This document shows positions 1-62,652 of a stretch of 64,000 nt of DNA, one piece after another. Under the pieces are notes generated by a model that was not told where the DNA came from, did no database searches, and saw nothing but the letters and a program-made list of their open reading frames with translations. The position numbers were made by a program, and so were the translations under genes. The stretch covers positions 133,731 to 197,730 of the IMG/VR virus record IMGVR_UViG_3300035137_000026; one strand, 5' to 3'. Within the stretch, counting starts at the first letter, position 1. Every line of letters begins with the position of its first letter. Source of the stretch: a virus.

Positions 1-189
1 ATGACATGCACTTAGGAAAGCAAAAGCAGAGTATCCAGCTCGCACACCGATTTCACATATACGCTTGGGTTTCAAACGCTTGGCAATGGCGTGCTTGTTT
101 CTGTAATAGTGTTCTACTTTAGGGTTTGTAGGGAAAGACTTTCTTTCGCCGTCCCACCACATTTCAGCCAATTCATTCCACCAATCCAT
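1..189 (-). CDS. Class I SAM-dependent methyltransferase, N-terminal part (runs off window)
   Basis: Manual translation from ATG at 189: MDWWNELAEMWWDGERKSFPTNPKVEHYYRNKHAIAKRLKPKRICEIGVRAGYSAFAFLSACH; ICEIGVRAGYS is a methyltransferase motif I-like sequence. Confidence 0.6.
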   Translation of the reverse strand, partial: MDWWNELAEMWWDGERKSFPTNPKVEHYYRNKHAIAKRLKPKRICEIGVRAGYSAFAFLSACH

Positions 190-199
190 TATGTTTTCC

Positions 200-1015
200 T
201 TACCACCATGAGAGGTTAACATACCCAACCTGTTCAAGTAGTTCTTTTAGTTCGTCATCCTGGTGCAGGCACTCATACTCTACTCCGAGTATCCGCTTCA
301 TGCCAGTAACATCTCCTGATAGTATCATGTTCTTGGCTTCATTAAAACCTTCCACCCCACGTTCTCTCTTGCATAGTAGAGTGCCATCCTCAGTAAGCCC
401 AATTGGCCTCCAATCGTAGACGAAATCTAGGCCAGGCTTCCTCAGTTTAAGCCCACAGTACTTAAATAGGTCGCTTGCCAAGTTAATCCGACCCTCTAGC
501 TCTTTGGCTGCATCTGTATCAACAGGGAATAGAAATCGGTTTTTGCAGGGTATTTTTAAGATATCTTTAAAGCGTGCAGCAACAGTTTGTGCTCTGTCTT
601 CTCGTATTGCTTGGTCTTCGTGCTGATAGTGTACCTTATACCTTGCATAGGTTCTCCAGATTAGGGTGTTAAGAGAAAGCATCGGATCTCGCATCGAAAT
701 TACTACTGGTATTTGGGATCTTTTGGTTTGTAGAGTAGTTACTAAGGGTGAACCAGGAGTGTCATGGTGACCATGCACCAGGATAACATCTTTCCCAGCT
801 TTTTCTTCTGGAGTTAGGAAACTTAAAGCTGTTTTCTGAATCCATGACTGGTCTACTACAGTACAGGGATTGTTCTCGAGCGAGAGTTTTCTGCCTCGGT
901 TTTCCATAAATCTCTCGCCTTTCCAAAAGAATTTGTCTGGCGGATAGTTACTTTGGATTAGTCGACACATAAACGTACCACCAGTGTGTGTGACGGTGTA
1001 GGCTATGGCTATCAT
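200..1015 (-). CDS. Sulfotransferase-like P-loop protein
   Basis: N-terminal THTGGTF (5'-PSB-like loop) and VISMRDPMLS (3'-PB-like RDP motif); paralog of 1739..2584. Confidence 0.55.
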   Translation of the reverse strand: MIAIAYTVTHTGGTFMCRLIQSNYPPDKFFWKGERFMENRGRKLSLENNPCTVVDQSWIQKTALSFLTPEEKAGKDVILVHGHHDTPGSPLVTTLQTKRSQIPVVISMRDPMLSLNTLIWRTYARYKVHYQHEDQAIREDRAQTVAARFKDILKIPCKNRFLFPVDTDAAKELEGRINLASDLFKYCGLKLRKPGLDFVYDWRPIGLTEDGTLLCKRERGVEGFNEAKNMILSGDVTGMKRILGVEYECLHQDDELKELLEQVGYVNLSWW

Positions 1016-51412: not shown

Positions 51413-52387
51413 TTATGGCAGTCCTAGGTGTTTGCTCATCTGCTCCATGGTGAAAGCCTCGATAGCTTTGTAGTTTGCATTTTCGGGGAGATTTGTTTTC
51501 TCCTGAGCAACTTCAAACTTGGTCTCTAGCTTATCAGCATGCTCGATGACCTGCTCAACCTCCCACTTGCCGTGCTTGATGTCAAGTATTAAGCTTGCCA
51601 TTGGAAGGGGGAAGATTAACTCGCCTTGCTCGAGCAGCATAAGTCCCTCATACAGCAAGCGAATTAGGTGTGATGCAAACTTTGTATCGTATCCATGTTT
51701 AAGAACCAGCTCGCTGCGGTTAGTGGCCTTATCTAGCCTCTGCTTGAGCATTTTGTATGCCTTCTTGGCATAAACACCAGGTTCAAAGCAAATGTCACCA
51801 CAGTGGATATGGTGTCCTGTGTCCTTCTTCCAGAAGGTCTTGCTGTCTGGATCGCAATCTATCATGTGGTCATACACCTGACCCATAGTAAGCTTCGGGT
51901 CACAAAGTCCTAGGAAGTCATAGCCATTGCGTAGCTCATTGAAGTGATCCCGGCGGATAATCATCTTGTGCTTCTGTGCATGAGCATACCCGATGAACCT
52001 TGGGATACACTGTTGGCTAGGGAAGTGTTCCCTCATTGCTAGAAGTGCTTCACCAGAATCATTGCAAAAGGCCTTGGCCTTGTCGTGCGCGAATAGAATC
52101 TCAATTACATTAGGGTTGTTCTTGAGTGCTAGGTTGATAAACCTCCTGAACTCATAGAGCTTCCGGTCAACTGCCTCAGCAGTATTCTTACCACTCTCAT
52201 CCTTGTCAGCCTTAGAGAAATCTACCTCTTTAACTGACTGGAGGCCCAGTACATATTCCTTCGGTGGCATAAAAATACCAACAAAATCCTCATCAGATTC
52301 TGGAGTGGAAGTGCCATACAGGTGTGATCCTACCACTATCTCAAGGATTTTGTTCTCTTCTGCCCGCTCTCTAAGTAAATCACTCAT
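51413..52387 (-). CDS. Pol-beta-superfamily nucleotidyltransferase
   Basis: VVGSHLYGTSTPESDEDF, NNPNVIEIL, YDTKFASHLIRL. Confidence 0.85.
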   Translation of the reverse strand: MSDLLRERAEENKILEIVVGSHLYGTSTPESDEDFVGIFMPPKEYVLGLQSVKEVDFSKADKDESGKNTAEAVDRKLYEFRRFINLALKNNPNVIEILFAHDKAKAFCNDSGEALLAMREHFPSQQCIPRFIGYAHAQKHKMIIRRDHFNELRNGYDFLGLCDPKLTMGQVYDHMIDCDPDSKTFWKKDTGHHIHCGDICFEPGVYAKKAYKMLKQRLDKATNRSELVLKHGYDTKFASHLIRLLYEGLMLLEQGELIFPLPMASLILDIKHGKWEVEQVIEHADKLETKFEVAQEKTNLPENANYKAIEAFTMEQMSKHLGLP

Positions 52388-52727
52388 CTTGGAGTATCTC
52401 TAATACTTTCTTAAGCTTCTCTGTACTAAGCTTCTTTAGTTCATCATCCTTGCATAGGCTCATAACTTTGTAGAGTATCCTTTTCCTGTATATGATCTTC
52501 CTGTGTTCATCGGTAATTGGTTCGATGTGATTGTGATTCCAGATGCCTGAGTGCCCGACCTTTTTGCCGTCTTGTTTGCGCCATCTCACCTCAGGAGCAT
52601 GCTTGTTCCAGCCTGTAGTAATTACTTGGGTCTTGGTGGTTCTAATTACTTCCCTAAAGTAGTCAGGACCGTAGCGTCCCATTACGGTGACGTAGTCGCC
52701 AGTTTTAATGTCTTCGAGCGTGCTCAT
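52380..52727 (-). CDS. Hypothetical protein
   Basis: 115-aa ORF. Confidence 0.55.
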   Translation of the reverse strand: MSTLEDIKTGDYVTVMGRYGPDYFREVIRTTKTQVITTGWNKHAPEVRWRKQDGKKVGHSGIWNHNHIEPITDEHRKIIYRKRILYKVMSLCKDDELKKLSTEKLKKVLEILQDE

Positions 52728-53015: not shown

Positions 53016-53497
53016 TTATCTCCAAAACTGCCACCACTTCTTGGGTGCTACTTCTTCCGGCTTCTCTATGGGTGATCACTTATTACACCAACCATCTTCG
53101 TTATGTTTTCTACATTCTTCGTAAGTTATGACGTTACCAATTATGAAGTTCCAGTGTGTTTATGTGTGTGCCCTGCATAGTTGTTCTTTATAGTACTGTC
53201 TTAAAGCCAAGTCCATGGTTAACATGGTTTGGTACAAGTCTGAGTCTATGTGATATATAGTATGCATGCCATGATATAGCATGCTGTGTGGATGTATCTC
53301 TCCTGGTATGAAGTGTATGCAGCTGCCGTAATGGTGTTTGTCTGACTTTATGGTTTTTTCCTGGAAGGCATCACAGTAATCAATGGTGGTAGTGGCTATA
53401 TAATACCTTCAACCCTGTGTCTACATCTCTTACAGACGGCGGGTCCACATATCTCACGGTCATCCTCGTCAGTGGCATACATTCTGTGACCGAACAT
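53016..53497 (-). pseudogene. Cys-rich phage protein with a frameshift and two nonsense codons
   Basis: MFGHR...CKRCRHRVEGII, frameshift in a TATATA run near 53400, then ATTTIDYCDAF...LCRAHT*THWNF...GWCNK*SPIE...KKWWQFWR; TAA at 53160-53162, TGA at 53076-53078. Confidence 0.6.
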
Positions 53498-53510
53498 TGT
53501 GCAGGGTATC

Positions 53511-54398
53511 TTATTCATCTTCTTCCACATTATGGTCTCCCCACATTAGGAATAGCAAGCAGCATCCTGCATGAGCTAGGTGAGACTTGCCACTCTCCGG
53601 GTCCTTCTTCTCCCCGTCATACCATGCCGTCATATGCCTCATCAGGGCACCGAAGTATCGCTTCCTTAGGGGTCTCACGTGCTTCCAGTTGTCGTCTCCG
53701 GTAAATTCAGCTGTTGCTGTTGTCTCGCTTGATAAATTTAGCTGCTGTAGGCGACTGAAGATACCTAATCGCTTCTTTAAGGTCAGTGATATTGTCACCA
53801 AACATTCCAAGACCGTTGTTGCAGCGACTACATAAGTAGCCTCTTGCAAGTCCTGTTTTAGTGTCATGATCAAGATGCATGGTGCATTCAGAAAACTTAC
53901 GTTTACATATTGCGCATCTATTTTCTTGTTCTTGTAGTAGAAGTTTAACTGTTTCTTCGGTGAGCCCTCGGCTTCGAAGGATGCTTCTTCTTTTTGTTCT
54001 TCTATCCTTTGCTCTCGCCTTTGGGTCTGTGCGTCTACGTTCCCTATACTGAGCAAGCTTATGGGGATTGTCTCGTTCCCATTTTCGCCGGTTTTCTCGC
54101 TGTCTTTCGGCATATTCAGGATTCTGTTCTTTAAGCTGTTTATCGTAGCAGGCTCTGCACATCCCTCGTGAATGTACCACTCTATATTTATCGCATTTAG
54201 TGCAGTATTCCATTCTTTCAATTCCTCCTCCAGGGAGGATAGCATAGAACTGGAATCTAACTCAAGTTTTTGTGAATACTTTTTCGCACCGAAGGTAAAA
54301 ATCTCGACTATCTCTCCTACTTCTTTGTATGGTAGGAGTTCCCATCTGGGTTTGTCCTGATCGAATTTTCTCCCTAGTGGTTTCTGGTCTTTGCTCAT
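53511..54398 (-). CDS. dATP/dGTP diphosphohydrolase-like protein (DUF5664-type) with a 192-codon in-frame insertion
   Basis: KFDQDKPRWELLP...FGAKKY|insert|GDDNWK...RYFGALMRH...DPESGKSHLAHAGCCLLFL; about 103 aa without the insert. Confidence 0.85.
   Translation of the reverse strand: MSKDQKPLGRKFDQDKPRWELLPYKEVGEIVEIFTFGAKKYSQKLELDSSSMLSSLEEELKEWNTALNAINIEWYIHEGCAEPATINSLKNRILNMPKDSEKTGENGNETIPISLLSIGNVDAQTQRREQRIEEQKEEASFEAEGSPKKQLNFYYKNKKIDAQYVNVSFLNAPCILIMTLKQDLQEATYVVAATTVLECLVTISLTLKKRLGIFSRLQQLNLSSETTATAEFTGDDNWKHVRPLRKRYFGALMRHMTAWYDGEKKDPESGKSHLAHAGCCLLFLMWGDHNVEEDE
53707..54213 (-). CDS. Endonuclease VII-like (His-Cys box) homing endonuclease nested in an alternative frame
   Basis: QENRCAICK...HLDHD...ARGYLCSRCNNGLGMFGDN...LKEAIRYL; own GGAGGAGG RBS. 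Confidence 0.9.
   Translation of the reverse strand: MEYCTKCDKYRVVHSRGMCRACYDKQLKEQNPEYAERQRENRRKWERDNPHKLAQYRERRRTDPKARAKDRRTKRRSILRSRGLTEETVKLLLQEQENRCAICKRKFSECTMHLDHDTKTGLARGYLCSRCNNGLGMFGDNITDLKEAIRYLQSPTAAKFIKRDNSNS
54207..54256 (-). promoter_or_regulatory. Predicted RNA hairpin covering the RBS and AUG of the nested endonuclease
   Basis: mRNA AUUCCA(G)UUCU pairs with AGAAUGGAAU (contains the AUG); inner UCCUC/GAGGA stem holds the SD. Confidence 0.55.
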
Positions 54399-54416
54399 AA
54401 TTATCCTTAGACATTA

Positions 54417-54656
54417 TCAGTCTGTGTATAGCATTGGTTTAAGTTCTGATTTTATCCGCATAGCAACCTCGCCTCTCCAGGTACTAGCATTAGATAAAAA
54501 ATATCTGACGACACTAGATGCTGAGTCGTAGAAGTAGTTATTATTAATGCTATTTAATGTCTTTAGGGCATCAAGGTACGGCTTGGCACCAAAGTAAACT
54601 TTCTTCCAATCCTTTTCTATCTCTTTTGCTATTTCATACAATGGTCTATGTGACAT
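54417..54656 (-). CDS. Small conserved-type phage protein
   Basis: RPLYEIAKEI..DW..VYFGAKPYLDA...FLSNASTWRG. Confidence 0.6.
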   Translation of the reverse strand: MSHRPLYEIAKEIEKDWKKVYFGAKPYLDALKTLNSINNNYFYDSASSVVRYFLSNASTWRGEVAMRIKSELKPMLYTD

Positions 54657-55855
54657 TAGTCTAACTCCACTAGATATTTAACAGTACACTGTTCTTCATT
54701 ATAAACAATGAACTCGTTGTTTCTTAAGTCTGCACCACCAAGAGCAGTAAGTGAATCATAGTTACCATGCTTCTTGAGGTTTTTATCTGTGAGGTTATAC
54801 ATCCAGTGTTCATGTTTCTTTTTGGTTAGGGTATTCCCCAAGTGAACATCATATAGAGCCATGAACCCCTTGTTGGATGAGCCTCTGGCCCAATAGGAAC
54901 CTCTACATGAGGTGTAGCCATAGCTCTTTCTTGCTTTATCGGCGAAGTATAATCCATAGCCAAACATCTTACCTGTTATGACAGCATTAGTAGGTCTAAG
55001 TATTAGTCCACCGTCTAAGATGTTCCACCAGTTTTCGTTTCTACTGCCGTGCCAGAACAATCTACGCTTCTTAACTTTTGCTTTCTTTACAAACTTATCG
55101 AAGCGTTCCTGTGTCCTTTTGTTAACAACCTTAAAGGCTCTTCTGAATTTGTGGGAAATCTCCCCAAGTTCTTTCTTGATAGTTCTAATATCATCTTCAT
55201 TGGCTGGTACGATTTCAAGTCCCATTGCCTCAAGGATAGTTTTCTTGTCCTCGGCTTTAGTAGTCTTCTTGACAGTGGCAACACGAACTTGGCCCTTAAG
55301 AATATCAAGAGTAGCCTGTTCGCTTACAATGAGGCTCTCTGCGTCATTCTTATCTCCATACCAGAGGTGACTTCGTACGTCTTTCATCCTCCTTGGGATT
55401 ACTTGGTATAGATCTAGTAATAGGTCATTGAAGTTTGATGCCGTGAGCTTCTTCTCGGTTAGAGTAGATAGCTTAGCTAGTTTATCTAGAAGCTTCTGTG
55501 CTTCCTCTACTTGCTTTTGAGTAACAGCATCAGAACTTATGGTGTAGTTAGCTTGAACAGATTTGTGGGCTAGTGCTTGTAACTCAGTTACAATTTGGTT
55601 AATGGCATTGTCACTAATAGTCTGAAAGTCTATGACATTTTTGTCTACCACACGTAGCTCGGTTACGTCTTTGTATCCCTTCGTGATTTTTGACTTAAGT
55701 AGGGAGTCCCATTTGCTTAATGGGTAGCGGGCATGTTGCTCAGTAGCATCCACACGGCCGTAGGTGACAGCAATCTCATTACCTTCTTGGACCATATTAT
55801 AGTACTTATTATTATTCCGGGCTGTCACCATTATTAGGTTTGCTATTTTTCCCAT
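54656..55855 (-). CDS. PARP-like ADP-ribosyltransferase (WGR + helical + catalytic)
   Basis: NNNKYYNM..YGRV (WGR-like), FWHGSR, GKMFGYGLYFAD, KSYGY, NNEFIVY: H-Y-E triad. Confidence 0.9.
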   Translation of the reverse strand: MGKIANLIMVTARNNNKYYNMVQEGNEIAVTYGRVDATEQHARYPLSKWDSLLKSKITKGYKDVTELRVVDKNVIDFQTISDNAINQIVTELQALAHKSVQANYTISSDAVTQKQVEEAQKLLDKLAKLSTLTEKKLTASNFNDLLLDLYQVIPRRMKDVRSHLWYGDKNDAESLIVSEQATLDILKGQVRVATVKKTTKAEDKKTILEAMGLEIVPANEDDIRTIKKELGEISHKFRRAFKVVNKRTQERFDKFVKKAKVKKRRLFWHGSRNENWWNILDGGLILRPTNAVITGKMFGYGLYFADKARKSYGYTSCRGSYWARGSSNKGFMALYDVHLGNTLTKKKHEHWMYNLTDKNLKKHGNYDSLTALGGADLRNNEFIVYNEEQCTVKYLVELD

Positions 55856-61850: not shown

Positions 61851-61922
61851 GGTGACCGACGGGATTCGAACCCATTCCTCTTGGGCCACAACCAAGTGTG
61901 CGAACCACTACACCACGGTCAC
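61851..61922 (-). tRNA. tRNA-His(GTG)
   Basis: Cloverleaf GTGACCG/CGGTCAC, anticodon arm CTTGG-TTGTGGC-CCAAG, TTCGAAT loop; no encoded CCA; position -1 is T, not G. Confidence 0.9.
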
Positions 61923-61949
61923 ATTGTACCAAATTAAGCTAGGGCCGCA

Positions 61950-62459
61950 CTAGGATACCTTGCTCTGCTGCTGTTGAATTGTCTGTTTGCATTCTGGATG
62001 CAAATCGTTGTGTTTCACGTAGTGGATACCATTAACGATCTTTGCTGTTCTCGCTTTGTCATCGCCGGTCTGGGTAATGATGATACCCTTGTATGGCTCC
62101 ACTAGTACACGGTCTTGTGTGCCTGGGTATGTAACCCAGAACAGGTTCTTGTTTCCGCAAGCCCGACATATAGCTGGCTCAAAATCCTTCTTCGGCCGGT
62201 TGAAGTGCATCACTGCGTACTGAAGCATCTCGTCAGCGGTAATCTGCTTGTATGTCTTACCAGGGTGGAATTCAATCTTTGTCTGTAGATCGAATACTCT
62301 GTCCTTCTCTCTGAAGATAGCAAACATTAGCTGCTTCTTAGGGTTCCATTTGTTTTTACCCCTAGTAAGGGTTGTATGCTTGTGCAGCTGATGGAATAGT
62401 GCCTTGTACTGCTTCTCTGTTACCTCGCACCATACTCTTACGTCGCTTTGCTTTATCAT
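61950..62459 (-). CDS. Hypothetical protein
   Basis: 169-aa ORF, CRAC...H...C motif. Confidence 0.55.
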   Translation of the reverse strand: MIKQSDVRVWCEVTEKQYKALFHQLHKHTTLTRGKNKWNPKKQLMFAIFREKDRVFDLQTKIEFHPGKTYKQITADEMLQYAVMHFNRPKKDFEPAICRACGNKNLFWVTYPGTQDRVLVEPYKGIIITQTGDDKARTAKIVNGIHYVKHNDLHPECKQTIQQQQSKVS

Positions 62460-62480
62460 TCCTTTTTTCCTTACCGTTAG

Positions 62481-62555
62481 TCGGGACGGGGAGGTTTGAA
62501 CTCCCGACCCCTAGTACCCAAAACCAGTGCGCTAGCCGGACTGCGCTACATCCCG
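62481..62555 (-). tRNA. tRNA-Pro(TGG)
   Basis: CGGGATG/CGTCCCG acceptor, CTGGT-TTTGGGT-ACTAG anticodon arm, GGGAG-TTCAAAC-CTCCC T-arm; no CCA. Confidence 0.92.
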
Positions 62556-62577
62556 ATTATATTTTCAAAAAACCTTG

Positions 62578-62652
62578 CGCCTCCTCTTGGATTCGAACCA
62601 AGGACTCTTCGCTTAACAGGCGAACGCTCTAACCTAACTGAGCTAAGGAGGC
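62578..62652 (-). tRNA. tRNA-Asn(GTT)
   Basis: GCCTCCT/AGGAGGC acceptor, TTCGC-CTGTTAA-GCGAA anticodon arm, CTTGG-TTCGAAT-CCAAG T-arm; no CCA. Confidence 0.93.

Follow-up and report, generated by a model that had tools for sequence, protein, structure and literature searches.

The window analysed here, a stretch of 64,000 nucleotides, comes from an IMG/VR virus record of 197,730 bp that has direct terminal repeats, and makes up its final 64 kb. The product of one of its reading frames matched PF18909 (DUF5664; dGTP_diPhyd_N) with 89.9 bits in two stretches, host residues 1–41 and 234–290, and the break between them corresponds to profile position 36/37, in the GAxKY|GxxNW motif of the PF18909 gene (Table 1). 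Uninterrupted homologues read GAKKY-APDNW or GAKKY-SDDNW at this point and the window gene reads GAKKY-[192 aa]-GDDNW. The insert is therefore 576 nt (192 codons) long, with the position of its ends resolvable only to within one codon, and taking out exactly 576 nt gives back a collinear host protein. An earlier first-pass annotation had described a 576-nt insert splitting a dATP/dGTP diphosphohydrolase, and this is borne out by the two-stretch match and by the alignment with homologues. It had also placed in the insert a complete 168-aa EndoVII-type nuclease, in the +2 frame and with its own ribosome-binding site, flanked by about 62 and 7 nt. The reading frame, the PF02945 match and the Shine-Dalgarno sequence GGAGGAGG were all confirmed, as were the 62 nt and 7 nt of insert that lie outside the nuclease ORF. 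Read in the host frame, GGAGGAGG forms part of ...LEEEL.... Across the family, 14–110 nt of insert precede the nuclease ORF and up to 31 nt follow it, and some loci overlap the junction by up to 11 nt.

Table 1. Features of the interrupted gene and its neighbourhood, in window coordinates.
Feature	Position	Strand	Basis
Read-through host ORF, 295 aa, PF18909 interrupted by the insert	53511..54398	(-)	Pfam, ORF list
N-terminal host segment, codons 1-41, ending ...FGAKKY	54276..54398	(-)	PF18909 profile to ~36; alignment with uninterrupted homologues
576-nt insert, 192 stop-free host-frame codons	53700..54275 or 53697..54272	(-)	Homologue alignment
Nested EndoVII-type (PF02945, DHHRN-like) nuclease ORF, 168 aa, host frame +2	53707..54213	(-)	Pfam, nuclease alignment A2
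Codon for Thr118 of the nuclease	53860-53862		
Nuclease Shine-Dalgarno GGAGGAGG, 11-18 nt ahead of the AUG	54224..54231	(-)	Sequence
Hairpin in which UCCUCC pairs with the Shine-Dalgarno and the AUG is buried	54207..54256	(-)	-19.2 kcal/mol, z -2.7
C-terminal host segment, GDDNW... to stop, 62 codons	53511..53699	(-)	PF18909 profile 37-92
Next ORF, overlapping the host ORF stop	53396..53530		
115-aa protein, Phage_ProQ_C_like	52380-52727	(-)	26.8 bits, just under the Pfam cut-off of 27
399-aa protein with PARP catalytic domain	54656-55855	(-)	PF00644, E 1.7e-26
Three tRNA genes	61851-62652	(-)	Rfam RF00005, 55-70 bits

The gene for a protein with a PARP catalytic domain is located just upstream of the interrupted gene; a small protein with a sub-threshold ProQ-like match and a group of tRNA genes are also found in the window.

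The nuclease matched PF02945 (Endonuclease_7) with an E value of 4e-18 and 65.5 bits (cut-off 23.6), or 67.5 bits in the genome search, and the profile of the nuclease alignment (A2) matched T4 EndoVII (1e7d) with an E value of 1e-8. The zinc cysteines C100, C103, C128 and C131 are invariant in this alignment, as are D115, H116, R124 and N132. The window nuclease carries Thr118 (HLDHDT) in place of the catalytic His43 of T4 EndoVII (HLDHDH). T4 EndoVII with the H43T change binds DNA but does not cut it and is inactive, so homing by the window copy is doubtful; its nuclease may be impaired, or may use another residue. In the closest relatives the second-His column holds Pro or Tyr, and His is kept in 27 of 33 in-gene relatives. 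The nuclease ORF is intact across a deeply diverged clade despite the Thr in the window copy. The first-pass annotation had called the insert a homing element. What stands of this is a nuclease of the EndoVII family nested in a host gene, while the missing second catalytic His leaves the current activity of the window copy uncertain. In about 50 loci, members of the nuclease clade are tied to PF18909 genes, either nested within the gene or as its immediate neighbour, and close insert-free homologues of the host gene exist. Cleavage of insert-free alleles followed by repair that copies the cassette is presumed, and homing is inferred.

A Shine-Dalgarno-like motif precedes the nuclease in 23 of 33 family members. 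Of the hairpin that contains this motif and the AUG in the window, only a 6-bp stem is common to the subfamily with the 62-nt flank, and pairing with the Shine-Dalgarno is limited to the closest relatives.

Several loci depart from the standard arrangement. At one in-gene locus (L062) the nuclease frame is broken by an internal stop that leaves 106 aa, and at another (L027) the nuclease has no ATG; the host frame is still open at both, and these are possibly decaying nucleases in a host gene that still functions. At L070 (positions 1200–2710) the N part of the PF18909 gene ends in a stop and is accompanied by a 391-aa ORF comprising the EndoVII domain and an extra C-terminal domain; the C part is in another frame and lacks the GxxNW motif. 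At L066 (positions 1–1000) the PF18909 gene is intact, and behind it come a free-standing EndoVII gene and, after that, a 53-aa duplicate of the C-terminal part of PF18909; this looks like the trace of a nuclease insertion in which a replacement 3' end was carried along.

The host frame is open through the whole of the nuclease gene. When the window nuclease ORF was resampled with uniform synonymous codons, 5.1 host-frame stops were expected against none observed (P(0) ~6e-4), and when its own codons were shuffled the probability of an open host frame was ~5e-3; the third frame of the same region contains 24 stops. In all ten loci inspected in detail the nuclease was in frame +2 and there was no host-frame stop, with 3.5–6.9 expected under uniform synonymous codons and 13–25 stops found in the third frame. 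A protein search with the long ORF recovered at least 16 clusters of PF18909 proteins of 261–379 aa with the same insert. The host-frame peptide of the insert, which the first-pass annotation had proposed as a query for other genes with open alternative-frame inserts, matched 35 further clusters, defined at 50% identity, in a search of 1.84 billion representatives. A 1396-aa repeat protein was one of these, and the others tested (10/10) were PF18909 proteins split at profile position ~37.

Both of these searches can detect open frames only, and we therefore used the nuclease protein for a survey of the family in which the state of the host frame plays no part (alignment A2, 77 loci, with counts made on unique loci). 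No host-frame stop was found in 35 of the 37 unique in-gene copies. Both PF18909 halves flank the nuclease at 32 of these loci, 30 without a stop and nine stops in the other two, and the five remaining copies, which are cut by a contig end, had none. In contrast, the 14 unique free-standing copies found directly beside an intact PF18909 gene contain 4–15 stops in the same frame. One of the two exceptions is L070, with its disrupted PF18909 gene and 391-aa nuclease fusion ORF. The other (L085) is 99.7% identical to the open L076, with one nonsense change, and is on a contig of 2x coverage. L066 was considered as a further in-gene exception and rejected, since its PF18909 gene is intact, with the free nuclease gene and the C-terminal remnant following it. 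In-gene and free-standing copies are intermingled on the nuclease tree, with at least three changes of state needed, and an open frame therefore tracks location and not ancestry. The open host frame in nucleases nested in PF18909 genes is not due to chance but to selection across the family. The first-pass annotation had judged the open frame of the window copy unlikely to be accidental, and had accepted that it would be refuted if homologous inserts usually contained host-frame stops; the family shows the opposite.

The way in which stops are avoided can be seen in the codons. At conserved Leu, Ile and Val codons that precede a purine, the in-gene copies have T or C in the third position, column by column, whereas the adjacent copies have A or G and, at several columns, a stop is their commonest host-frame reading. 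Codons ending in T or C at these places block the combinations NTA-R and NTG-A that would create TAA, TAG or TGA in the host frame, and stops are thereby avoided. An excess of synonymous-site identity in the in-gene nucleases was confined to NTN codons (0.46–0.55 versus 0.20–0.36 in free-standing copies). At the other 4-fold and 2-fold sites there was no excess, in-gene and free-standing copies being alike and near saturation. The host frame is therefore selected for openness and for little else. This lack of synonymous constraint beyond stop avoidance makes a hidden Hint domain, or a second conserved protein in the host frame, unlikely; on the evidence of sequence, a hidden intein in the host frame is likewise unlikely.

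Removal of the insert from the RNA, by an unrecognised self-splicing or host-processed intron, or its bypass by the ribosome would make the open frame incidental, and would be consistent with the collinear protein that is restored when 576 nt are deleted. A scan of 53400..54500 on both strands produced no Rfam match at E<=10, in agreement with the first-pass annotation, which had judged the flanks of the nuclease too short for a group I/II ribozyme, and a scan of the whole window found only three tRNAs. That annotation had also noted that the junctions can pair. Pairing is indeed present in the window, but it is at the level expected by chance, with a z of -0.5 for the junction duplex and a mean z of 0.09 over 35 family members, 3% of which fell below -2. 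None of the in-frame choices of junction places a U at the end of the 5' exon and at the same time a G at the end of the intron. For ribosomal bypass, T4 gene 60 is the model in which a stop reportedly follows the take-off codon; here the 576 nt are free of stops throughout, and so none follows any take-off codon. Known translational bypasses are also about ten times shorter than a 576-nt gap. As neither process would explain why stops are absent from 35 of 37 in-gene copies when free-standing copies have 4–15, we regard RNA-level removal or bypass as highly improbable.

The host gene does not look dead. In pairs of insert-bearing genes with sister nucleases, pN in the exons was 0.05–0.11 and pS was above 0.6, giving dN/dS values of 0.08–0.17 where these were measurable and 0.40 in one distant pair. 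The exons are thus under purifying selection, the invariant residues and motifs of PF18909 are all kept in both halves and the 197.7-kb genome has only one PF18909 copy. The first-pass annotation had named a dead host enzyme as something that would count against it, and these findings point the other way, without showing activity. DUF5664 proteins hydrolyse dATP, dGTP and dUTP to dNMP and PPi in vitro, an activity described for uninterrupted members only (PMC12884076). No PurZ was found in the genome, and the enzyme is therefore taken to be a general nucleotide-pool enzyme and not part of a Z-DNA pathway. The same insert was found at the same site in a divergent PF18909 subfamily (...HYE-x-GA-x-KY..., with no DPESG in the C part) at L049, L053, L058, L059 and L061; the element has therefore spread among distantly related lineages of the host gene or been retained in them.

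The open frame could also be kept for reasons that do not involve the enzyme, if the enzyme were dispensable and ribosomes reading through the insert prevented polar effects on the overlapping gene downstream, or unfolded the hairpin that covers the nuclease start. An ORF does overlap the host stop, and the hairpin in the window buries both the Shine-Dalgarno and the AUG of the nuclease with a z of -2.7. However, this hairpin is not conserved across the family, and a dispensable enzyme is difficult to reconcile with strong purifying selection on the exons, with retention of every invariant family residue or with its being the sole PF18909 copy in the genome. We consider this explanation very unlikely.

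AlphaFold2 (AF2) models of proteins from two subfamilies predict that the two exon halves pack as one helical domain, with pLDDT of about 90 or more. Parts of the insert reached pLDDT 74–88 in the window model, where residues 78–146 were below 50, and in the model of the L025 subfamily the insert was disordered (pLDDT 29–39). With VIA-align, the exon parts aligned across the insert (83 residues, model range 13..290) matched the uncharacterised protein 2p06 (AF_0060) only moderately well, with a Z of 7.3. The insert gave matches, also middling, to beta-alpha-beta-beta-beta-alpha folds such as HPF/RaiA and T7 Gp1.2 (Z 5–6). Given the disorder predicted in the L025 subfamily, both these matches and the fold predicted for the insert are treated as unreliable. 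A Foldseek search against the PDB returned no match at E<=0.001.

A translated spacer might subsequently be removed or cut, by a splicing-like reaction without a Hint domain or by proteolysis, with the active form either joined or made up of two chains. This would need an open host frame just as much, and fits the survey equally well. The insert ends are mostly Ser or Thr with Gly always next, and the stretch predicted to be disordered (residues 78–146) would be within reach of a protease. The individual terminal residues vary, with Ser, Thr, Glu, Gly or Phe in first position (mostly Ser or Thr) and Thr, Ser, Lys, Glu, Leu, Asp or Pro in last position (mostly Thr or Ser). A terminal Asn and a Cys, Ser or Thr at +1 are both absent from the copies listed; the residue that follows the insert is Gly in every one of these copies, which is not fully explained. 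No intein, Hint or autoprocessing family was detected at E<=10 in seven members, consistent with the lack of intein motifs in the host-frame peptide reported in the first-pass annotation, and the absence of synonymous constraint beyond stop avoidance means that the host frame holds no conserved catalytic residues. Post-translational removal or cutting therefore remains a possible but rather unlikely outcome. Excision or cleavage without a Hint domain or conserved junction residues would be a new form of protein-level removal of a mobile insert, and this we think distinctly doubtful.

The arrangement that we favour is one in which the spacer remains in the protein. In this reading a homing cassette of the EndoVII family, made up of a Shine-Dalgarno, an AUG and a 168-codon ORF, would occupy the loop-coding GAxKY|GxxNW sequence with no intron or intein to wrap it. 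The host frame would read through the nuclease gene in the +1 frame of the nuclease, kept free of stops. Translation from the host AUG would yield a single protein of 295 aa, in which the halves of the helical domain are joined, helix 1 to helix 2, by a spacer of ~190 aa of essentially unconstrained sequence. The nuclease would be translated separately from its internal Shine-Dalgarno and AUG, and would cut insert-free alleles, the repair of which would copy the cassette. That the cassette sits in its target gene without splicing, and that translation of the enzyme continues through it, leaving an alternative-frame spacer of ~190 aa in the loop that connects helices 1 and 2, is in our opinion probable, though well short of secure. 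What was observed at this and related loci is the anatomy of the locus, an open frame selected for throughout the family, exons under purifying selection and a lack of intron or intein signatures. Production and activity of the long protein, retention of the spacer and homing by the nuclease are inferences. Among the fates suggested in the first-pass annotation, namely tolerance as a loop, excision at the protein or RNA level and ribosomal bypass, the first is the best match; an open frame would not be required for RNA excision or for bypass.

Against straight read-through, there are no protein, RNA or activity data, and the insertion point is the family's most conserved motif, where an unconstrained spacer of 190 aa might well impair the enzyme. 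The pLDDT of 74–88 predicted for parts of the window insert also speaks against it, but was not reproduced in the second subfamily. If the long protein is active, then a conserved loop in an enzyme can carry ~190 residues of essentially random sequence, and the family is a natural example of a frame selected only for openness. The free-standing sister copies provide a built-in control, and the PF18909/EndoVII system is small and lends itself to direct tests. Since gene callers report the long ORF alone, nucleases of this type go unannotated.

In the literature, no report was found of an out-of-frame nuclease that overprints its host gene without an intein. The arrangement was also not found among the isolate phages in INPHARED, where three host-protein queries gave no record covering at least 80%. 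Three candidate carriers were considered and rejected. Klebsiella phages have an uninterrupted gene with EndoVII 1 kb away, gp60 of Aeromonas phage KLEA5 has only an N-terminal extension and gp146 of Gordonia phage Smoothie is a C-terminal fusion.

A 2025 report described EndoVII-like nucleases encoded out of frame within actinobacteriophage inteins (10.1101/2025.01.02.630785). These belong to the nuclease family seen here and are encoded in 'frame 3' relative to an in-frame element of the host gene, and no recognisable fold results when the nuclease region is translated in the host frame. However, the Hint blocks of these inteins lie on either side of the nuclease region and take out the junk peptide, and the host gene family is different; in the family of the window too little insert lies outside the nuclease ORF for a Hint domain, and no intein family, terminal motif or hidden constraint was detected. 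The idea of overprinting is therefore not wholly new. The first-pass annotation had proposed an undescribed system, and this appears to hold for overprinting without an intein but not for out-of-frame nucleases of this kind in general. In a cyanobacterial dnaX intein with an out-of-frame LAGLIDADG nuclease (10.64898/2026.09.14.751524), a +2 ORF nuclease under purifying selection similarly overlaps a weakly constrained host-frame stretch, but the context is an intein and the nuclease belongs to another family.

The established homing endonuclease family with the EndoVII motif is that of F-CphI, or DHHRN (PMC6083498). The catalytic motif of PF02945, with the zinc cysteines, the D-H pair and the Asn, is shared with the window nuclease, and its free-standing relatives adjoin their presumed target just as F-CphI adjoins psbA. 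F-CphI is free-standing, whereas the window copy is nested within the target gene and has lost or never had the second His. A homing nuclease gene without an intron or intein, mobE, is said to lie within nrdA of phage Aeh1, splitting nrdA into two separately translated polypeptides. As in that case, the window nuclease gene is in a gene of nucleotide metabolism with neither intron nor intein, but the window gene has no stop or restart and forms one continuous ORF kept by selection. Homing endonuclease genes in coding genes have been accommodated in three known ways, in a self-splicing intron, in an intein or by a gene that is split in pieces. The family nested in PF18909 genes suggests a fourth, in which there is no splicing and the nuclease is itself recoded so that the host frame can be read through it.
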